57,504 nucleotides of DNA, from positions 1-57,504 of IMG/VR virus record IMGVR_UViG_3300048577_000448; one strand, 5' to 3'. The position numbers and the translations under genes were made by a program. This stretch comes from a virus. Taxonomy: Duplodnaviria > Caudoviricetes. The notes beneath the pieces were generated by a model that was not told where the DNA came from, made no database searches, and was given only the letters and a program-made list of their open reading frames with translations. Shown here piece by piece: positions 13,902 through 42,570 of the stretch (positions are counted from its first letter, which is position 1; every line of letters starts with the position of its first letter).

Positions 13902-14656
13902 AAACCCGGCCTGCCAACCTACATAAGCCTCCCAAGTTGGAACTTAGGGCTTCGGCAGGACAGGCCGGGTGAATCAAATTACATGCATCAATTGTGTATG
14001 GCCTGCTTACGATGCCGGCAGGATCGGCTTACAGCTTACACCGGCCTTTTCGGTGTGCCGCATGGTTGCGTCTCCGTTGTAAGGTTAAAATGCCTCGGTA
14101 CTCCACTCTTTACCCGAGGCGACTATCTGCCCATTAGGGCGGCGCAGGGATGGTCAAGCATTGCCGAAGGTGGTGACGATGGGGTCGTGGTCGTTCTTGG
14201 GGCCTTCACGAATCATGGCGTTCTCCTTTTTGGGTTTATCGAAAATTTCCGCCGTATACGGCCTGGAACCGTACCGTGCGGTGCGCCGTCGTGGGGCGCT
14301 GCTTCTGGGGCATGGCTGGCTAGGGTAGCCAGTCGGGGATGAGGATGATCATGGGTGATCGTTTAGCCGCCTAACCCGATGGCGGCCGGCCTGTCGCAGT
14401 TTGGTGCTGCGACGTTGTTGGCCTAGCTTGATGATTCTTTGCCTACCTTTGCCTGGACAGTCGGCTGTCGGCTCTAAGCCTTGCGTCCCCCGACCTTGTT
14501 CGGCATCCGGGTTTACGGGGCCTCCGGGGTAGCTTTGATCTTGCTACGGCCAAAGATAGGCAAATTTGGCGTCCCCGCCCGCTCTCGCGAGAACCTGCAC
14601 CAGCCTGCCAGTGATGGCGGTCAAGCCAGTGACATGTGTTTCGGGGACGTGAGTTG

Positions 14657-29490: not shown

Positions 29491-29984
29491 TGGCTGGGAA
29501 GCCCGTTTACGACAAAGCTTTGTTCAAGGTTATTTGCGACAGAATGGCCGCCGGGGAAAGCCTTCGGTCTGTGTGCAGGGACGAGGGAATGCCGGCTCCT
29601 TCGACTGTGAGGCTGTGGGTTTTGCAAGACCAGTCATTGGCTGAACAGTACGCTCGTGCGCGAGAGAGTCTCTATGAGCATTGGGCTGACGAATTGCTTG
29701 AGATTTCTGACGACGGATCCAACGACTACATGGAGCGTCTCACCAAGAATGGAGACACTGAAACGGTCGTCAACAACGAGCACATCAACCGTTCTCGTCT
29801 GCGCGTTGATTCTCGGAAGTGGCTGCTCTCCAAGTTGCTACCGAAGAAGTACGGCGACAAGGCTTCGGTGGAGTTGACGGGCAAGGACGGTGGCCCCGTC
29901 CAGACCGAAACCACCATCTCCGTAGTCCAGTCCATCATGGCCGAAATCGACGGGAGCACGGCGCATGTCCAACTGTCCGAGTGA
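29487..29984 (+). CDS. terS: Terminase small subunit
   Basis: ICDRMAAGESLRSVC, YARAR, SRLRVDSRKWLLSKL.PKKYG, LTGKDGGP. Confidence 0.9.
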   Translation: MMAGKPVYDKALFKVICDRMAAGESLRSVCRDEGMPAPSTVRLWVLQDQSLAEQYARARESLYEHWADELLEISDDGSNDYMERLTKNGDTETVVNNEHINRSRLRVDSRKWLLSKLLPKKYGDKASVELTGKDGGPVQTETTISVVQSIMAEIDGSTAHVQLSE

Positions 29985-31470
29985 TGCCGAGTTTGCCGAG
30001 CTGAAGCGCTGCTTCGCCGACCGCACTTGGCGGCTTAATAACCTTTACTGGATCACCGACAAGCGCAGCAACCGCGTCAAGTTCAAGCTGAACACGGCAC
30101 AGGCGAAGCTCGTCAAGGACATGCACAATCGCAACGTCACCCTCAAGTGTCGACAGAAAGGGATAACGACGTTCTGGTGCATTTTTGCGTTGGACGCTGC
30201 TCTGTTCAACTCCAATTTCTCGGCTGGTATCATCGCTCACAACCTGGACGACGCGAAGGAAATCTTCCGAACTAAGGTCAAGTTTCCTTACGACAACTTG
30301 CCCGAGTCGATACGCAAGGCCCGGCCAGCCAGCCAGGAACAGGCCGGCATGCTGGTGTTTGACAACAACTCCAAGATTTCCGTCAGCACGTCGTTCCGTT
30401 CGGGGACGCTTAACCTGCTCCACGTGTCAGAGCTTGGCAAGATCGCAGCCAAGTACCCGGACCGGGCCAGGGAAATCAAATCTGGCGCGCTGGAGGCTGT
30501 CCCCATGGACGGCATCGCCAGCTACGAGTCCACGGCCGAAGGCGCATGTGGCTACTTCTACGACGTGTGCAAGGAAGCGCAGGACCACGCGGCTAGTGGC
30601 AATAAGCTTACGCCCCTGGACTTCAAATTTCACTTCTTCCCGTGGTGGATTGACGACGAATACGAGATGTCGCCGGACGGCGTGGTCATCACGGCCGAGC
30701 TGGAGAAGTATTTTACCGAGCTTGAGGCCAACACGGGCGCGTTGCTCTCCCCCAGGAAGCGGGCTTGGTACGCAGTCAAATACAAGAACCTGGGCGACGA
30801 TACCCTCAGGGAATATCCCTCGACGCCGGAGGAAGCGTTCCGCGCGTCCGTCCAAGGGGCCTACTACTCGGCGCAATTCGCCAGGGTGCGGGCCGAGAAG
30901 CGGATTGTCAATATCCCCATCGAGGACGGTATCCCGGTCAATACGGCCTGGGATTTGGGCATGGACGACTACACGGCCATTGTCTTCTATCAGAACGTCG
31001 GTCGTGAGATTCGCTTTATAGACTACCACGAGAACAACGGAGAGGGGCTGTCTCACTACAAGCGCGTGCTTGAGGAAAGAGGATACCTCTACGGAAACCA
31101 CTACTTCCCCCATGACATCAAGGTTCGTGAGCTTTCAGGCGACGGAAAGAGCCGCAAGGAATCTCTAGAAGCCATGGGTATCAGGGTTACTATTGCGCCA
31201 AACCTTGCAGTGAGCGACGGAATTGAAGCTTCACGTAAGCTTTTATCCATGTGTTGGTTCGATGAAAAGCGTTGTGCTACGTTGGTTTCTCGGTTAGAAT
31301 CATACCGTAAATCGTGGAACGATAAGCTGGGCGTGTTTATGGAACAACCAGTGCATGACGAGGCTAGTCACACTGCCGACGCATTCCGATACGCCGCGAT
31401 CACGCACGAGTTCGACACGCCTCACGGGTATCAACCGCCTGGGCAGAAACACAAGAGCAGGGTGTTGTGA
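29965..31470 (+). CDS. terL: Terminase large subunit
   Basis: KCRQKGITT, LHVSE, ESTAEG, nuclease WDLG..D and HD.ASH.ADAFRY. Confidence 0.95.
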   Translation: MSNCPSDAEFAELKRCFADRTWRLNNLYWITDKRSNRVKFKLNTAQAKLVKDMHNRNVTLKCRQKGITTFWCIFALDAALFNSNFSAGIIAHNLDDAKEIFRTKVKFPYDNLPESIRKARPASQEQAGMLVFDNNSKISVSTSFRSGTLNLLHVSELGKIAAKYPDRAREIKSGALEAVPMDGIASYESTAEGACGYFYDVCKEAQDHAASGNKLTPLDFKFHFFPWWIDDEYEMSPDGVVITAELEKYFTELEANTGALLSPRKRAWYAVKYKNLGDDTLREYPSTPEEAFRASVQGAYYSAQFARVRAEKRIVNIPIEDGIPVNTAWDLGMDDYTAIVFYQNVGREIRFIDYHENNGEGLSHYKRVLEERGYLYGNHYFPHDIKVRELSGDGKSRKESLEAMGIRVTIAPNLAVSDGIEASRKLLSMCWFDEKRCATLVSRLESYRKSWNDKLGVFMEQPVHDEASHTADAFRYAAITHEFDTPHGYQPPGQKHKSRVL

Positions 31471-32476: not shown

Positions 32477-32914
32477 ATGAGCGAGAATAGAGATATGGAT
32501 TTGGACGCCATCGAAACGTCTTTCCGAAATAACGCCGACAAAGACTGGGAAGGCGGCCTCCAGACGCGTTTCGCTGTAAATGGGTTGGTTGTTTTAGGGG
32601 AGCACCTTGTTTCCAGGGTGCGGGAGTTGGAGGAGGCTTTGGCCCGTCTGTTCTCTCGGACAGGCACGGGCATGGATTGGACGAATGGCGAGGGATTGGA
32701 AATTATCACTCGGGCCAATAACGCGCTTATTGGGAAATCCATTCCTCCGCTCAACCGCCTTGACGATCTCGAAAACGACAACGCCGCCCTCCGTCTCGCC
32801 GCGACCGAGCTTTACGAGTTCGTCACCCACGACTGCGGCATCGAGTCGCAGGGCATGGACGCGATTTACAGGATGGCGAACGTGTTGGGGGTGGTGAAGG
32901 AGGTAAAGTTTTAA
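32477..32914 (+). CDS. Hypothetical protein (Ead-like)
   Basis: MDLDAIE...LVSRVRELEEAL pattern; start approximate. Confidence 0.5.
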   Translation: MSENRDMDLDAIETSFRNNADKDWEGGLQTRFAVNGLVVLGEHLVSRVRELEEALARLFSRTGTGMDWTNGEGLEIITRANNALIGKSIPPLNRLDDLENDNAALRLAATELYEFVTHDCGIESQGMDAIYRMANVLGVVKEVKF

Positions 32915-33858
32915 TGAGTCGGCCAAGAGACCTCACGGGGGAGAAGTTTAATAAACTTTTGGTTCTCGGAAGGGTAGAAGGCGAGAACGGTAAACTTAGC
33001 CCGAAATGGAGATGCCTGTGCGACTGTGGGAACGAGACGGTTTCTGCAGGAGCTAAAATAACCTCCGGAACGACAAAATCTTGCGGTTGCTTGAGGATTG
33101 GTCCCAAAGAAGACTTGGTTGGAAAAAGGTTTGGTAGGTTGACGGTCGTTTCCTTGGGGGACAGGGACAAAACAAACAAAATAAAGTGGAAATGCTTGTG
33201 CGATTGTGGTGTAGAAACTGTTTTGCGTGGACAGTCTTTGAAATCTGGAGAGGTAAAGTCATGCGGGTGTTTGGGTAAAGAGACCAAGTTCAAACTAGGT
33301 CACGGGAAAATAGACTTAATTGGTAAGGTTTTTTCTAGGCTCACTGTCATAGAAGATGGTGGGAAGACACACGATGGACGTCAGCTTTGGATTTGCAAAT
33401 GTGAATGCGGAAACGTTAAATCTGTGTATGCGCAGGGATTGAGAAGCGGACATACAAAGTCTTGCGGGTGTTATGATTTACAATTAAAAAGAGAGCGAAG
33501 AGGGATAAAACATCCAAATTTCAACCAAGACCTTACAGATGAAGAAAGGATGAAAGATCGCTCCCATGTTTTGGTCGATTTGTGGTCAAAAGCAGTTCTA
33601 ATAAAAGATGGATATACATGCAGAAAATGCGGAAAGACCGGTGGAAGGCTTGAGGCGCACCATCTTGATGGGTGGCACTGGTGTAAAGACAAGAGGTTTG
33701 ATTTGCTGAACGGTGGGTGTTTGTGCGTTTCTTGTCATAAAAGCTTTCATCGCACATTTGGAATAAAACATAACACTCGTGATCAATTTTTAGATTTTAC
33801 TGGTGAAAACATAAAATATGTAAGCCAGCCTAGCGCCGGAGTGGCGGCAAACTCATGA
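32914..33858 (+). CDS. Free-standing HNH homing endonuclease with three repeated DNA-binding modules
   Basis: Three DL.G..F..L.V...W.C.C(D/E)CG...KSCGC repeats; C-terminal CRKC...AHHL...NG.CLC.SCH..FH; visibly AT-richer than its flanks. Confidence 0.88.
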   Translation: MSRPRDLTGEKFNKLLVLGRVEGENGKLSPKWRCLCDCGNETVSAGAKITSGTTKSCGCLRIGPKEDLVGKRFGRLTVVSLGDRDKTNKIKWKCLCDCGVETVLRGQSLKSGEVKSCGCLGKETKFKLGHGKIDLIGKVFSRLTVIEDGGKTHDGRQLWICKCECGNVKSVYAQGLRSGHTKSCGCYDLQLKRERRGIKHPNFNQDLTDEERMKDRSHVLVDLWSKAVLIKDGYTCRKCGKTGGRLEAHHLDGWHWCKDKRFDLLNGGCLCVSCHKSFHRTFGIKHNTRDQFLDFTGENIKYVSQPSAGVAANS

Positions 33859-35099: not shown

Positions 35100-35192
35100 G
35101 TTTATTCGTCTATACAAAGACGTTTCGCATCCATTCGCATCCGTAGACGGATTTTACCGGATGCGTCTAATACGTGGGCTATTGTGTGGCCC

Positions 35193-37418
35193 ATGCCGCA
35201 GGCTCTCACCGACACCGACATTATCAACGCTATCCAAGGCGACATTGACGCTGCAAAGGCCTATCAACAGGACTTGTCGGCCGAGCGCGAACGCCTGTAC
35301 GCCATTTACCGGGCGCAGCCATACGGCAATGAGGTCGAAGGCTGGTCGCAGGTCGTCCACCCCACGGCCTACAGCGCTGTAGAGTGGCTTAAGCCCGGTC
35401 TGCTTGAAATTTTCATCGGTGATTTCTTCTCGTTTTCTCCGATCAAGAAAGAATTGCCTCCCCCCGTCCAGCCCCCCGACTCCCCCGCAGCGGCTTCGGC
35501 CGCCCCTGGTCCTTTCGGTCGTCCCGGTGCGACTTCTTCCGCTCCGGGCGGCCTACCGGGGAGAAAGTCCTCTGATCCCGCAAGCGAGTCGGCCAAGCGC
35601 CTGAAGTCCTACATTCGCCACAAGTTGTTTAACCAGCTCGACGGCGAACAGTTGGTTGACGATGGCATCCACGACGCGCTCACGTCCCACTATGCCATTG
35701 CCAAGGTTACCCAGCGGGAAGACTACGACATTGACGTCGAACCGCTGGAGCGGGCGTCTACGGCCGAAATCGCGGCCATGATGGCGGATGACCCTGAGAT
35801 CGTGGACATTCGCGGTGGCAACGCTGTCCAGGAATTTGACAGCACCACAGGCTACTACTGGGAGGGCATCGAAGGGGCCGAGATCGTGCGCCGCAAGGTG
35901 CATTACCAAGGCTTCTACGTCGAGATCGTGCCGCCCAGCGAGTTGTATTTCCTCCCTGGCTACTCCGATTTGCAGAAGAATCCGCTCGTGGCCCATGTGG
36001 TCAAGCGCGACCTTGACTACGTGCTGCGCCAGGAAATGGCCGGCGTGTATCGCCCTGGATCCCGTGACCGCGTCAAGTCCAAGTTGGACCAGCGCGGCGA
36101 CCCGACCGAGACGGAGTCTGAACGCTTGCTGCATAGCGCCGTGGACGGGGTCTTAAAAGCGTCGGACTATGGCGAGGGCGCGGTTTCACCCAACAAGCTG
36201 CGCACCCCTGGTAACGAGGTGTTGATTTGGGAGTGCTACTGTCGCCTGGACATTCGCGGTGACGGCTTGCTCCGCCCGTGCATTGTCACAATCTGTGAAA
36301 ACGAGGTGCTTAGGGAGCCCATCGAGAACCCCTATGGTGGGCCTCCGTTCGAGCTTGGCTACGTCGCCAAGGAGCCCGGCAAAATCATCGGCCGGCCCGT
36401 GGTGGCGGTCCTGGAGCAGCAGCAGAAGGTTTTGACCAACCTTTTGCGCAACATCCAGGACAGCGCTGCCAAGAGCACTTACAGCGGCTGGATCACGTCC
36501 GACCCGCGCAGCCGCAATGCGCTCATGGATTTCTCGCCCGCCTCGGTCATGATGGTTCCTGACATCACCAAGATTCAGCAGATCGAGACGGCCGCCCCGT
36601 CGCAGTTCATTTTCAATGCGTTCCAGCTTTCGCTTCAGGAAACGAGCAAGGAAGCCGGCGTCAACGAGAATATGCAGGGTCTGGACAACAACAGCCTCAA
36701 TAAGACCGCGCAGGGAATGAACATGCGCTTGACTGCCGCGATGATGCGGCAAAAGCACATGGCCCGCAACCTCGCCCGTTGGTGGCGGCGCATCCTTCGG
36801 CGTATCCTTGACGTGATCCGCCAGTTCCCTCCGGTAGACGACGTGCGATTTGTCGGTGCAGACGTGGCGCTCAAGCCAGAGGACATCGAAGGGCAGTACA
36901 CCATTGACATTGAGGTTGGTGTCGGTCCGCAGGATCGGCAGCAGCAATCAGGGATGATGCGCGAACTTGTCCAAATGCTCATTCAACAGTTCATTCCAAA
37001 CGGGCAAGCGACTCCGCAGCAGTTGACCAAGGCCACTATTGCCATGTTCGAGTACATGGACATGGACGTCTCGCCCTATCTTCTCCCCGAAGACGAAATT
37101 GAGCCCTGGCAGATGGTCCAGAAGCAAATGGGCCTGCTGCGGCAGCAGATGGAACAGATGCAGAAAGAGCTTCAGCGTCGGCAACCGCAGCAGGGCAACC
37201 CCCAGGAAGAGGCTGCGAGGTTTCAACTTGACGCGCAGGCGCAGCGGCACAGTCAGGCCATGGACGAACGGAATTTCCAGCTCGACGCACAAAGCAGGGC
37301 GGCCGAGTTGGCGCTTGAGGACAAGAAAATCACGCTGGACGCGGTGAAGTCCATGCAGCCGCAGCCGGGCATCCCGGTCGCTGGCGCGCAAACGGGCTTC
37401 TCGGGTTTTCCGAGCTAG
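35193..37418 (+). CDS. Portal protein (podovirus / P22-like)
   Basis: About 740 aa after terL; YGNEVEGWSQVV, IDIEVGVG, Q-rich C-terminal barrel. Confidence 0.88.
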   Translation: MPQALTDTDIINAIQGDIDAAKAYQQDLSAERERLYAIYRAQPYGNEVEGWSQVVHPTAYSAVEWLKPGLLEIFIGDFFSFSPIKKELPPPVQPPDSPAAASAAPGPFGRPGATSSAPGGLPGRKSSDPASESAKRLKSYIRHKLFNQLDGEQLVDDGIHDALTSHYAIAKVTQREDYDIDVEPLERASTAEIAAMMADDPEIVDIRGGNAVQEFDSTTGYYWEGIEGAEIVRRKVHYQGFYVEIVPPSELYFLPGYSDLQKNPLVAHVVKRDLDYVLRQEMAGVYRPGSRDRVKSKLDQRGDPTETESERLLHSAVDGVLKASDYGEGAVSPNKLRTPGNEVLIWECYCRLDIRGDGLLRPCIVTICENEVLREPIENPYGGPPFELGYVAKEPGKIIGRPVVAVLEQQQKVLTNLLRNIQDSAAKSTYSGWITSDPRSRNALMDFSPASVMMVPDITKIQQIETAAPSQFIFNAFQLSLQETSKEAGVNENMQGLDNNSLNKTAQGMNMRLTAAMMRQKHMARNLARWWRRILRRILDVIRQFPPVDDVRFVGADVALKPEDIEGQYTIDIEVGVGPQDRQQQSGMMRELVQMLIQQFIPNGQATPQQLTKATIAMFEYMDMDVSPYLLPEDEIEPWQMVQKQMGLLRQQMEQMQKELQRRQPQQGNPQEEAARFQLDAQAQRHSQAMDERNFQLDAQSRAAELALEDKKITLDAVKSMQPQPGIPVAGAQTGFSGFPS

Positions 37419-39536: not shown

Positions 39537-40685
39537 ATGGAACTTAACCAGACCGGGGAGTCCCAGCAGACCAACCCCGCGACCACCGCGCCGGACTCCG
39601 GGCTGATGAGCCAGGAACAACCGACTCGCAAGTCTCACGAAGACGATTTTGCCGCGCTTATGGACAGCGCGTCCGCGCGTATGGCTGGTGTGCCTCCGAA
39701 GCAGCCCGAGCCGGCCCCTGCCCCGCAGCAGGACAAGCCGGCCGAGGTTGCCGAGGACAAGCCCGCAGCCGAGCCGGAGCAGACTACCCCTGAAGCGCCC
39801 AAGGCCGACGAACAGCAGGTCCAGCCGCAGCCCGAAACACCGCGCATCGTAAAACTGCGTGTGGACGGTCAGGAAATCGAAGTCCCTGAAGACCGTCTCG
39901 TCTCGCTGGCGCAGCAGGGACTTGACTACACCAAAAAATCGCAGGCCCTTGCCGATCAGCGCCGGCAGATGGAGGCTTGGCAAGCGGTTATCAACCGAGT
40001 CCAGACCGACCCCGCCTTTGCCGCGCGATTCCAGGGCCTTTTTGTCGAGCAGCCGCAGCAGCCCCAAGCCGTCGCGCCCGCGCCCCAGGAGACGCCGCCG
40101 GATGACCCGGTGGACCGCCTGAAGTGGGAGATTACCCGAGAGGCCGTGGCAAAGGCCCGGGAAGAAATCCTGGGAGAAGTTCGGCCCATGACGGAGCAAC
40201 AGGCGGCTATCCAGCACGCCATGCGGCTTCAGGCGGTCAAAAGCGACGTGATGCGTGACCCGGCCTATTCGGACACCATGCAAATGGTCCGTAGCTACGT
40301 GGAGAGCCAGCCGATGGCCTTCCGTGACCGCATCTACCGGACGCTGGACCAAGACCCCCAAGCCTTTATGGAGGTCTACGGCCAGGCGCGAGATCGCGTG
40401 ATGGCGATGCGTCAGCAGTTACCCCAGGCGCAGCCGCAGCCCGTCCAGCCGCAACAGCCACAAACCCCGCCGCAGCCCCAGCAGGTCGAGCGCAGGGTTA
40501 CCCCCCGCGAGGCTCCGAAGCTGGAGAGCGCCGGCCAGGGTGTTCCGCAAACAACCGAAAGTGCCGCCCGCGCGCAGTCTTTGAAGGACATTCGCAAGCG
40601 GGTGTTTAGTGGAAAGAGCACGGCCAGCGACCTTGGAGCCTTCCTTGAGGCCACCGGGGCCATTGGCCGCATGACCCAACGATAA
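39537..40685 (+). CDS. Scaffolding protein
   Basis: Acidic low-complexity N-terminus, VKLRVDGQEIEV...QQGLDYTKKSQALA; directly upstream of the capsid gene. Confidence 0.85.
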   Translation: MELNQTGESQQTNPATTAPDSGLMSQEQPTRKSHEDDFAALMDSASARMAGVPPKQPEPAPAPQQDKPAEVAEDKPAAEPEQTTPEAPKADEQQVQPQPETPRIVKLRVDGQEIEVPEDRLVSLAQQGLDYTKKSQALADQRRQMEAWQAVINRVQTDPAFAARFQGLFVEQPQQPQAVAPAPQETPPDDPVDRLKWEITREAVAKAREEILGEVRPMTEQQAAIQHAMRLQAVKSDVMRDPAYSDTMQMVRSYVESQPMAFRDRIYRTLDQDPQAFMEVYGQARDRVMAMRQQLPQAQPQPVQPQQPQTPPQPQQVERRVTPREAPKLESAGQGVPQTTESAARAQSLKDIRKRVFSGKSTASDLGAFLEATGAIGRMTQR

Positions 40686-40690
40686 ACACC

Positions 40691-40725
40691 GCTCACAGGA
40701 CGTGAGCGAGTACGCCAGGAGAGGC
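40691..40725 (+). promoter_or_regulatory. Twin GGA-loop hairpin leader (major capsid)
   Basis: GCTCAC-AGGAC-GTGAGC then GCC-AGGAGA-GGC. Confidence 0.75.
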
Positions 40726-40727
40726 AT

Positions 40728-40892
40728 ATGCCCGACGTTACCACTTCCAGCTATACCAGCGAGTCGACCGGCGTCCGCACCATGGGTGAAACCATTTTCG
40801 AGGACGTCGAAGGGACTATTCAGCTCATCAGCCCGGCCGACACGCCGTTTCAGGCCAGCATCGGCATGGAAAAGGCGACCAATATCTTGCAT
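40728..40892 (+). CDS. Major capsid protein, exon 1 (55 aa)
   Basis: MPDVTT...EDVEGTIQLISPADTPFQASIGMEKATNILH matches the N-terminus of SU10/DUF5309-type capsids; not in the ORF track. Confidence 0.9.
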
Positions 40893-41775
40893 TGACACAT
40901 TGGTGCAAGTAAAATATGGCTATATGCGGGAACACCCTTAGAGCTTTAGATGCCGAAGGTGCAAAAATGCTAAAGATTGGGCAATCCGCAGGGAAGAGTT
41001 ACGCGTATTTGCTTGGCGTTTATTTGGGTGACGGATGCGTCACGAACACCGGAAGGTACCCGATGTTTAGGCTCAACACGATAGATGCTGATTTTGCCGA
41101 TGCCACAAAAGCGGCCCTGGCAGACATTACAGACAGACATGTCGGTATCAGCGTTTACGCCGTGAAGAAGAGCTCAAAGCCTAACAACGACCTTCATTGT
41201 GGCGACCCCGAAATTTGCGCCAACCTGAAAGAAGTGACCCAAGACAAACAGATCATCCCGTTGTTTGTTTTCGAGTGGCCCAAAGAACTTCGTATGTCCT
41301 TCGTTGAAGGGATAATGGACAGCGAGGGGTATGTGGCAGAAAACAAGCGATGGGACACGGCTTGCAGCCGGTATTTTATGGGTTTTAAATCGTGTGACGT
41401 TTGGGTCAACGATTTCCATAAGATCCTGACTGGACTTGGTGTAAGGACTGGAGTCATTACTGCTGAGAAGCCGAGAAAGGAAGGATATAAGACCCCTTAT
41501 AGGTTTTATATCAAAATGCAGTCTTGGGTTGATTCTGGATTGAAGTTCAACATTGCGAGAAAGCAGAACAGGGTTGACGAATGGGCCGCAAACCCACGTT
41601 ATACCGAGCGCAAAGTTGGACCGCGTAGGCTCCCCTCAGAGACTACATGCCGTACAGCCGCTTAGGCGGTTGGTGATATAGTCCGACCTCTGGTGAGAGC
41701 CAGAGATCATGTCAGAAATGGCATGACGCCGCGAAAGCGGTTAGTAGGGTTGCCTCGCCCGAAAGTAACAGAACG
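40893..41775 (+). ncRNA. Group I self-splicing intron (883 nt)
   Basis: P1 CUUGCAU/GUGCAAG with U-G at the splice site; P3 UAUGGC/GCCGUA; P4 UGCGGG/UCCGCA; R UCAGAGACUA (41636-45), S GAUAUAGUCC (41675-84); P8 and P9 hairpins; terminal G41775. Confidence 0.93.
40916..41665 (+). CDS. Intron-encoded LAGLIDADG homing endonuclease
   Basis: Two motifs AYLLGVYLGDG and SFVEGIMDSEG; alternative start at 40967. Confidence 0.88.
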   Translation: MAICGNTLRALDAEGAKMLKIGQSAGKSYAYLLGVYLGDGCVTNTGRYPMFRLNTIDADFADATKAALADITDRHVGISVYAVKKSSKPNNDLHCGDPEICANLKEVTQDKQIIPLFVFEWPKELRMSFVEGIMDSEGYVAENKRWDTACSRYFMGFKSCDVWVNDFHKILTGLGVRTGVITAEKPRKEGYKTPYRFYIKMQSWVDSGLKFNIARKQNRVDEWAANPRYTERKVGPRRLPSETTCRTAA

Positions 41776-42570
41776 GAATGGTTAGAGGACGAGCTTGAAA
41801 CCCCCACCGGCTCCAATGCCGCCGTGGAAGGCGCTGATGCCGTGGCCGCCGAAATGCTGCCGCCCGAGCGCCTGTCCAGCCACACGCAGATCGTGGAAAA
41901 GACCTTCAAAATGAGTGGCACGATGGAGGCCGTCAACACCATCGGTCGCCAGGATCACGCCAAGTACCTGCTGGGAAAGAGCCTCAAGTACCTGAAGACC
42001 GAGATCGAAAAGATCATCATCAACAACGCCACCGACTCGGCCGGCAGCGCCACCACCGCCCGTACCACCAAGGGTCTGGACGGTTGGGTTTCGACCAACG
42101 ACAAGTCGTATGCGTCCTACAGCGCCAACAACGACTTCGACGAAACCAAGTTCATGGCGATGGCCGAGGCTGCCTATTCGGCCGGCGGCTACCCGTCCAT
42201 CCTGATGGTTCCGCCCAAGCAGGCCGTGGTCATCAGCAACTGGGACCAGGCCGGCAAGATCACCGTCAACCAGGAAGCCACATCCAAGACCCTGACTATG
42301 GCGGTCATGGTTCTCGAAACGCCGTTTGGCATCGTGAACGTGGTTATCGACAAGTGGATTTCCGAGGACACCGACAGCGGAACCAAGTACGACAGAATCT
42401 TCCTCTACGATCCCGAAAAACTCGCCATCGCCTGGCTCCGCAAGCTCAAGACCGTGCCTCTCGCCAAGACCGGCGACAACACGAAGTACCAGAGCCTGGG
42501 CGAGTTCGCTTTCGTGTGCCGCAGCGAGAAGGCTCATGCGAAGTGCAAGAAGTGCGCTCAGCCGTACTAG
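41776..42570 (+). CDS. Major capsid protein, exon 2 (spliced product 319 aa)
   Basis: EWLEDEL..P..NAAVEGAD, HTQIVEK...SGT, LAKTGD; joins exon 1 in frame as ..LH|EW.. Confidence 0.92.
   Translation, partial: EWLEDELETPTGSNAAVEGADAVAAEMLPPERLSSHTQIVEKTFKMSGTMEAVNTIGRQDHAKYLLGKSLKYLKTEIEKIIINNATDSAGSATTARTTKGLDGWVSTNDKSYASYSANNDFDETKFMAMAEAAYSAGGYPSILMVPPKQAVVISNWDQAGKITVNQEATSKTLTMAVMVLETPFGIVNVVIDKWISEDTDSGTKYDRIFLYDPEKLAIAWLRKLKTVPLAKTGDNTKYQSLGEFAFVCRSEKAHAKCKKCAQPY

Follow-up and report, generated by a model that had tools for sequence, protein, structure and literature searches.

The DNA analyzed here, the IMG/VR provirus record IMGVR_UViG_3300048577_000448 (57,504 nucleotides, or 57.5 kb, referred to in full as the window; completeness estimate 73%), carries a major capsid gene that is split by an insert of 883 nucleotides (nt) containing a long open reading frame (ORF). 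The head module of the window runs from the large terminase gene through an HNH endonuclease, the portal gene, and the scaffold gene to the capsid gene. The first exon of the capsid gene ends with TTG CAT at position 40892, and a TGA stop codon at 40893-40895 follows directly after the residues ATNILH; the capsid frame picks up again at 41776 with GAA TGG. The split gene is an SU10-type major capsid gene, as indicated by its Pfam match and by its place after the portal and scaffold genes. Exon 2 matches Pfam SU10_MCP (PF17236) over profile positions 44-289 with 222.7 bits (E 9.7e-66), above the cut-off, and exon 1 matches profile positions 11-43 with 21.6 bits, which alone is under the cut-off of 24.1. 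Together the two matches are contiguous over the junction, between profile positions 43 and 44.

When exon 2 was searched against 5.8 billion proteins, 76 relatives were recovered, mostly of about 318 amino acids. The closest of these (P0001, P0080, and P0081) are all uninterrupted, read ...ATNILHEWLEDELETPTG..., and align gap-free across the His-Glu junction. P0080 has 319 amino acids and is identical to the joined exon translations at 300 of 319 residues (94%) with zero gaps; exon 2 matches it at 250 of 264 residues, also gapless, and exon 1 at 50 of 55, within the range of 50-51 of 55 for the uninterrupted alleles overall. A preliminary description of this DNA had set the limits of the insert at 40893-41775, had derived a joined product of 319 residues, and had suggested a search for intron-less alleles; the limits and the length are exact, and the three proteins read through His-Glu-Trp (H-E-W) as such alleles should. 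The G+C content is 0.49 in the insert versus 0.59 in the exons. Two other searches were negative: blastn of the locus against a phage collection gave zero matches, and exon 2 as a single-protein query against viral contigs did not find any relatives. The features of the locus are collected in Table 1.

Table 1. Window coordinates of the interrupted capsid gene, the predicted intron with its helices and ORF, and the neighboring head genes
Feature	Position	Strand	Details
Capsid exon 1	40728-40892	+	55 codons, ends ...ATNILH; final base, U40892, forms the U of the 5' splice site
Predicted group I intron	40893-41775	+	883 nt, last base G41775; Rfam, ORF-less homologues, covariation
Capsid exon 2	41776-42570	+	264 codons and stop, starts EWLEDELETP; Pfam SU10_MCP
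P1	40886-40892 / 40903-40909	+	exon CUUGCAU with guide GUGCAAG; 7 bp, U40892.G40903 at splice site
P10 (candidate)	40898-40901 / 41777-41780	+	CAUU with exon 2 AAUG; 4 bp
P3	40916-40920 / 41649-41653	+	AUGGC with GCCGU; 5/5 pairs in 20/20 members, 8 sequence variants
P4	40925-40930 / 40985-40990	+	UGCGGG / UCCGCA; RNAalifold and covariation
P5	40935-40937 / 40979-40981	+	CCC / GGG; RNAalifold and covariation
P5a	40944-40949 / 40970-40975	+	CUUUAG / CUAAAG; RNAalifold and covariation
P6	40991-40993 / 41633-41635	+	GGG with CCC; paired in 20/20 members
P7	41641-41645 / 41679-41683	+	GACUA / UAGUC; Rfam alignment; 93.4% of cells paired; encloses P3' and P8
P8	41655-41661 / 41666-41672	+	Rfam alignment; 97.4% of cells paired
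P9	41688-41694 / 41699-41705	+	GAGA loop; 97.7% paired; compensatory changes in 6/7 pairs
P9.1	41708-41713 / 41720-41725	+	read by hand
P9.2	41728-41732 / 41737-41741	+	GAAA loop; 80.6% paired
Predicted LAGLIDADG homing endonuclease ORF	40967-41665	+	232 aa, stop UAG 41663-41665; motifs LLGVYLGDGCV, FVEGIMDSEGYV; bulk in P6a loop
Shine-Dalgarno-like GAAGGUG ahead of endonuclease	40955-40961	+	in P5a terminal loop; putative function
Shine-Dalgarno-like AGGAG of capsid gene	40717-40721	+	6 nt ahead of ATG 40728; read from sequence
Artefactual gene call, truncated capsid	41824-42570	+	248 aa, starts GTG 41824; public protein P0078 is the exact product
Large terminase gene	29965-31470		head module
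Free-standing HNH endonuclease ORF	32914-33858	+	PHROG 374, E 1e-55; between large terminase and portal genes
Portal gene	35184-37418		head module
Scaffold gene	39537-40685		head module, directly before split capsid gene

Identity and fold of the insert

Relatives of the endonuclease, with 49-62% identity, are encoded on 22 IMG/VR contigs, and all of them are flanked by the two exons, the first short and the second long, of an SU10-type capsid gene. A search with the ribozyme core motif added nine more contigs in which an ORF-less insert of 274-304 nt occupies the same capsid position. The family extends over at least 31 viral contigs. The insert of the window can be identified as a group I intron through its homology to these ORF-less introns, which pass the Rfam threshold, and through the covariation of its helices. 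The nine ORF-less introns score 70.0-77.2 bits (among them 70.0, 73.8, and 77.2) with the Rfam model Intron_gpI (RF00028), whose gathering score is 50, and the 3' block of the window is 66% identical to the ORF-less intron of L139. Comparison of the ORF-less with the ORF-bearing introns placed the ORF in the terminal loop of P6a.

The best Intron_gpI score of the window itself is 29.3 bits at 41497-41705 (permissive mode; E 3.4e-5 in the 1.3-kb region and 0.0015 in the whole window). The intron falls under the threshold because its endonuclease ORF, of which about 640 nt lie in P6a, cannot be spanned by the model. The 29.3-bit alignment matches J6/7, P7, P3', P8, P7', and P9 with high posterior probability and pushes the 5' half of the model onto coding sequence; a second weak match of 13.3 bits at 40925-40990 coincides with the true P4-P5-P4'. 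The preliminary description had proposed a group I intron and an Rfam search as a check on it. The search falls short for the copy in the window and succeeds for its ORF-less homologues, and the identification holds.

Two other kinds of intervening element were considered and rejected. An intein does not fit a capsid frame that meets TGA at the first codon of the insert, nor an ORF that is out of frame (exon 1 is in frame 0, the endonuclease ORF in frame 2, and exon 2 in frame 1). A group II intron was set aside on zero such Rfam matches at E ≤ 10 in the 1.3-kb region, and on the ORF product being a LAGLIDADG protein.

The helices were assessed in two alignments, a 5' block of 16 ORF-bearing members and a 3' block of 20 members, with two controls: partner columns slid by 1-3 positions, and 500 shuffles. 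RNAalifold alone predicted P4, P5, P5a, P8, and P9. In the 5' block (P4, P5, and P5a) 98.4% of cells are paired versus 26-48% after sliding, the covariation score is 0.490 versus 0.147 in shuffled alignments, and both sides have changed at 12 of 16 pairs. The corresponding values for the 3' block (P7, P8, P9, and P9.2) are 92.6% versus 30-42% and 0.526 versus 0.154; neither score was reached by any of the 500 shuffles. The shuffle control is subject to a caveat about the relatedness of the members; the controls with slid partners, however, and the large number of independent kinds of pair agree with it. The resulting P3-P9 core has the P3/P7 pseudoknot topology, with compensatory changes in P3, P4, P5, P6, P8, and P9, and further ones in P1 and P5a across 16-20 related introns. 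All four counted pairs of P8 have changed on both sides, and the third pair of P6 occurs in all four Watson-Crick types (AU in nine, GC in five, UA in five, and CG in one of 20 members). P7 is near-invariant and hence uninformative, save for one pair that is A-U in nine members, G-U in five, and an A.C mismatch in five. RNAalifold joined the 5' strand of P7 to a GGUC farther downstream, a pairing that was rejected for the Rfam-consistent P7. In the window all counted core pairs are standard apart from a single A/G where P5a meets its loop, and the helices that had been named from the sequence at the outset (P1 with its U-G pair, P10 as CAUU/AAUG, P3, P4, P7, P8, and P9) are all present.

The splice sites are tied to the exons by P1. 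Eight distinct combinations of exon and guide occur among the capsid members, and in all of them the two are complementary and the U.G pair at the splice site is kept, so that the guide sequence covaries with each host exon. Our script did not find the 7-bp P1 in L137 and L154 (which have a 6-bp form), in L129 (which has Ns in the exon), or in seven loci lacking a recognized capsid host gene; L146 is counted among the seven, and nevertheless its downstream ORF matches SU10_MCP. The last base of the intron is G, as at G41775 in the window and in every one of the 20 members whose two splice sites are defined, where the search pattern itself demanded a G. Of the 22 members with a recognizable anchor, 20 regain an in-frame H-E-W through the inferred splice. 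No 3' splice site was found in L127 or in L136, which is cut off by the contig end, and L126 and L128 did not fit the anchor pattern.

The same evidence bears on an explanation that dispenses with RNA splicing altogether, in which the capsid gene has been broken in two by a free-standing endonuclease gene and each piece is translated separately, the two products then assembling. Public gene calls do present the locus in this manner, as products of 55, 249, and 248 amino acids, and a GTG is available at 41824. The boundary of exon 2, however, has neither a start codon nor a ribosome-binding site, and translation from 41824 would leave out 16 conserved residues, EWLEDEL among them. In addition, about 230 nt of noncoding flanks are kept as helices with compensatory changes, the guide tracks the exon, and ORF-less versions of the insert exist. 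We give this explanation hardly any credence.

A conserved capsid motif and two insertion registers

Capsid-based scans recovered 113 loci, none with this intron or endonuclease, in a search where one of the two patterns spans the junction and so disfavors intron-bearing alleles. An uninterrupted H[ESQ]W[LQ] is present in 112 of the 113 loci, giving 97 distinct sites, at least four of which are likely chance matches at other places in the locus. HEWLEDEL or HEWLEDTL is found at 90 of these 97 sites, and therefore the intron lies in the most conserved motif of the capsid family. The most conserved motif of a gene is the typical place for homing sites. Judged from the sequences, the intron family appears to be dedicated to the H-E-W capsid motif.

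Within this motif the introns occupy two registers. In class A, to which the window belongs, the intron follows CAU and exon 2 begins GA(A/G)UGG; in class B the intron follows CAUGA(G/A)U and exon 2 begins GG. The two registers are exactly 4 nt apart inside the H-E-W codons, and the guide sequence matches the register in each class. Class A introns occur after CAT without exception, whereas the uninterrupted alleles have CAC at 55 and CAT at 42 of the 97 distinct sites. This restriction is as predicted, because in group I splicing a U has to precede the splice site. The invariant TGG codon supplies this U in class B, where both histidine codons occur. The endonucleases of the two classes are intermixed: their maximum-likelihood tree requires three register changes, but supported branches force only one, and the tree did not resolve a single versus a multiple origin of the two registers. 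One possible account, which we offer tentatively and consider doubtful as it stands, is that the GA(G/A)U separating the two registers represents the four central bases left as a 3' overhang by a LAGLIDADG enzyme, and that one lineage seeded both ends of the cut. If this were true, the pair of registers would be a naturally occurring example of intron sliding linked to the geometry of cleavage, in introns whose ORF termini lie in core helices.

Diverged intron-bearing alleles, about 92-96% identical to the window in their longest pieces, were found in contigs of four public runs from three studies, and these contigs are continuous across both intron junctions. The sample of one of these observations, run X5, also holds an uninterrupted allele alongside the intron-bearing one: a short contig of low depth (record 5, corresponding to window positions 41788-41885) carries a related uninterrupted ...ATNILHQWLE..., with Q for E.

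Several loci resemble members of the family or share parts with it. Twelve capsid loci that are seemingly split near the same site are not introns, 11 of them having in-frame, stop-free insertions and L104 a frameshift elsewhere. An in-frame insertion of about 60-100 residues right after HEWLEDEL is present in L036, L041, L106-L111, L113-L115, and P0067-type proteins, and it mimics a split gene in tblastn. In L148, L150, and L163 (2874-3101) a second group I intron of 77.7 bits, with an extra insertion between P7 and P3', lies downstream in the same SU10-type capsid gene, which makes two introns per capsid gene. The same ribozyme core motif is found in other phage genes in L142, L147, L151, L158, and L162, none of which reaches the Rfam gathering score; the cargo is LAGLIDADG_2 in L142, L151, L158, and L162 (with helix-turn-helix domains in L142 and L162) and LAGLIDADG_1/3 in L147. 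L146 (2001-3929) has the capsid gene and the intron core motif, and a 214-amino-acid ORF without a Pfam family replaces the endonuclease. A 55%-identical relative of the endonuclease is encoded at L117 (2501-3124), on a 511-kb contig of an alphaproteobacterial metagenome-assembled genome, at a locus with zero matches among ten capsid queries.

The predicted endonuclease and the proposed splicing cycle

On its predicted structure, the ORF product is a monomeric two-domain, two-motif LAGLIDADG enzyme. It matches PHROG 4645, an endonuclease family, at 8.4e-8; Pfam Hom_end gives 13.3 bits, below its cut-off of 21.1, and a search of NCBIfam yielded nothing useful. LLGVYLGDG (with D22) and FVEGIMDSEG (with E120) are unchanged in all 15 aligned sequences. 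An AlphaFold model based on this alignment (predicted local distance difference test 88.1, predicted template modeling score 0.85) has the two-domain alpha-beta-beta-alpha-beta-beta-alpha fold, and Foldseek returned 110 PDB matches to it at E ≤ 0.001, each listed top match being a LAGLIDADG enzyme. The probability is 1.00 for PI-SceI, PI-PfuI, I-DmoI, I-Tsp061I, and I-AniI, with E values of 2e-7 to 5e-7 for the top matches PI-SceI, PI-PfuI, I-DmoI, and I-Tsp061I. The window enzyme, known here from its predicted fold, shares with these last four the two-domain architecture and one LAGLIDADG helix with an acidic residue per domain; it differs in having only 13-19% identity to them and no intein splicing domain. 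The proposal of a LAGLIDADG endonuclease in the preliminary description agrees with this predicted structure.

Both ends of the ORF are embedded in the ribozyme. The start at ATG 40967 was set by homology to 14 relatives; an alternative start at ATG 40916, giving 249 amino acids, was rejected, as it lies inside P3 and its counterpart is absent from the relatives. The Shine-Dalgarno-like position ahead of the ORF is kept as GAGGAAAAG in relatives. The first codons of the endonuclease (about 10, including IGQSAGK) coincide with the 3' strands of P5a, P5, and P4 plus the 5' strand of P6, and the last 17 or so run through P6', J6/7, P7, and P3' into P8, with the stop codon in the P8 loop. This overlap with P5a, P5, P4, P6, P7, P3', and P8 would be in keeping with a group I intron that cannot splice on its own and needs the help of a protein, either the LAGLIDADG protein acting as a maturase or a host factor. 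Proteins with maturase function (bI3 maturase and I-AniI) are among the structural matches, and the core is compact, without P2 as read by hand. Against such a dependence, ORF-less members are found at the same site in otherwise intact capsid genes, which argues for a ribozyme independent of a protein in cis, and nothing in the sequence demands a cofactor. We regard a requirement for protein help as highly unlikely.

We propose that the capsid pre-mRNA would be transcribed through the intron and that the core would then fold, with P1 forming first, from the terminal seven bases of exon 1 and the internal guide, and P3-P9 after it. An external guanosine would then attack after U40892, the freed exon 1 would attack after G41775, and ligation of CAU to GAAUGG would yield the 319-amino-acid capsid protein reading ...NILHEWLEDE.... 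With the endonuclease start in the P5a 3' strand and its stop in the P8 loop, translation may compete with ribozyme folding for the same RNA. Presumably, capsid alleles that lack the intron are cut by the enzyme at the H-E-W codons, after which the intron would be copied in by homing. The dependence of the capsid on splicing that was proposed at the outset has comparative support, and from these comparisons we infer the splicing itself.

It is very probable that the element is a functional splicing group I intron with a LAGLIDADG homing endonuclease, and the residual doubt is whether this particular copy still splices. Several points weigh against a functional element. An Rfam scan of the window at the gathering score gave no group I match, and the best score of 29.3 bits is below that threshold. 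The Pfam LAGLIDADG_3 score of 21.2 bits is just under the cut-off of 22.5, and a sequence search of the PDB matched LAGLIDADG enzymes of solved structure only weakly (E 0.05 and 1.1). The P10 pairing is modest, with a mean of 3.9 bp for cognate versus 2.2 bp for cross-class combinations over the family, and 4 bp in the window. Five distinct members have the A.C mismatch in P7 (alignment A7, columns 23/65), so that some copies may be inactive, and an internal stop codon in the endonuclease of one relative indicates that the copies need not all be active. The completeness estimate of the provirus leaves room for a decaying element. Finally, the 40892/41776 spliced joint is absent from the public-run contigs, with no run on record as RNA and the runs marked "RNA?" being probably DNA. 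The relative with the interrupted endonuclease is L137 (2058-2741; L154 is identical), where the intron is otherwise intact, which suggests a decaying copy.

These points would be accommodated by a decayed, non-splicing copy of the intron in a degrading provirus, which would make the capsid gene effectively a pseudogene. The incompleteness of the provirus, the subthreshold Rfam score, the lack of the spliced joint among contigs that include no RNA runs, and the decayed relatives all lean toward it. It is opposed by the state of the copy itself. The core pairs are standard save the one A/G in P5a, and the splice-site U.G and the terminal G are present; both exons are intact and have gapless 94% identity to uninterrupted alleles; the endonuclease ORF is open and keeps both acidic motif residues; and diverged copies of the intron-bearing allele persist in three independent studies. 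Decay of this copy consequently seems to us an improbable explanation, and a functional mobile intron is the preferred one.

Precedents and consequences for annotation

Classic phage group I introns, such as T4 td with I-TevI, interrupt genes for nucleotide metabolism or for polymerases, and their enzymes are of the GIY-YIG or HNH type. The window intron resembles T4 td in its features of a mobile intron, with an endonuclease ORF looped out from a peripheral helix and homing to a conserved coding site. It differs in that its host gene is structural, its enzyme belongs to the LAGLIDADG family, and the termini of its ORF lie within core helices. It represents a well-supported structural-gene intron outside the classic DNA-metabolism targets.

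Group I introns in capsid genes as such have already been published, and the window intron adds one more. In the mycobacteriophage LittleE (Cluster J), a group I-type intron in the capsid gene is reported to be spliced during late expression (PMC3706429). According to the passages describing it, the LittleE intron shares with the window its location in a phage major capsid gene, the U at the end of exon 1, the G at the end of the intron, and a LAGLIDADG-related ORF (PMC3706429). The same passages describe an ORF on the bottom strand, with 177 amino acids, I-CreI-like and with an HNH-like tail, whereas the window ORF is on the sense strand, has 232 amino acids and two motifs, and overlaps the core; the LittleE capsid is HK97-like and belongs to an actinobacteriophage, in contrast to the SU10-type capsid of the window (PMC3706429). 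The lactococcal phage Tuc2009, known to us through its citation in PMC3706429, is likewise cited for a capsid subunit gene that contains a group I intron. Two groups of crAss-like phages, Delta and Zeta, are described as having group I introns in their major capsid protein genes, and there too the introns bear endonucleases, occur in uncultivated phages, and confound annotation (PMC7886860). They reside in another capsid family and another phage order and were recognized by protein domains; a single conserved target motif or RNA covariation is not described in the relevant passages of that account (PMC7886860). The rarity of capsid introns, as implied in the preliminary description, was overstated in view of LittleE and the crAss-like phages, one precedent even having a LAGLIDADG-like ORF (PMC3706429, PMC7886860).

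A literature search on SU10 or DUF5309 capsids and introns did not find this intron family, subscription journals and supplements being outside its scope. The cyanophage PA-SR01, which surfaced as a literature match for SU10 and group I introns, was rejected as a match to a DOI string only. What is new here is the family of at least 31 contigs on H-E-W, the two registers 4 nt apart, and an ORF that begins and ends in core helices. This natural series, with one target motif, introns with and without the endonuclease, and two registers, is suited to the study of how a homing endonuclease and a ribozyme become coadapted to a coding site.

The intron has a direct effect on gene calling. In the public protein collection exon 1 appears as the 55-amino-acid P0077, the endonuclease as a protein of 249 amino acids, and the capsid as the 248-amino-acid P0078, so that the truncation of the capsid by automated annotation, anticipated in the preliminary description, has in fact taken place. 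The calls for two relatives, P0082 and P0020, contain only exon 2 and begin MEWLED..., their start codon apparently consisting of the last three bases of the intron. In this provirus, as in at least 31 related viral contigs, the principal virion protein is mis-annotated as fragments, and capsid-based phage classification and proteomics would miss or truncate such proteins unless the intron is modeled. Elsewhere in the window, Rfam identifies a DUF3800-VIII RNA motif on the minus strand at 13905-13969, with 48.8 bits against a gathering score of 40.2.

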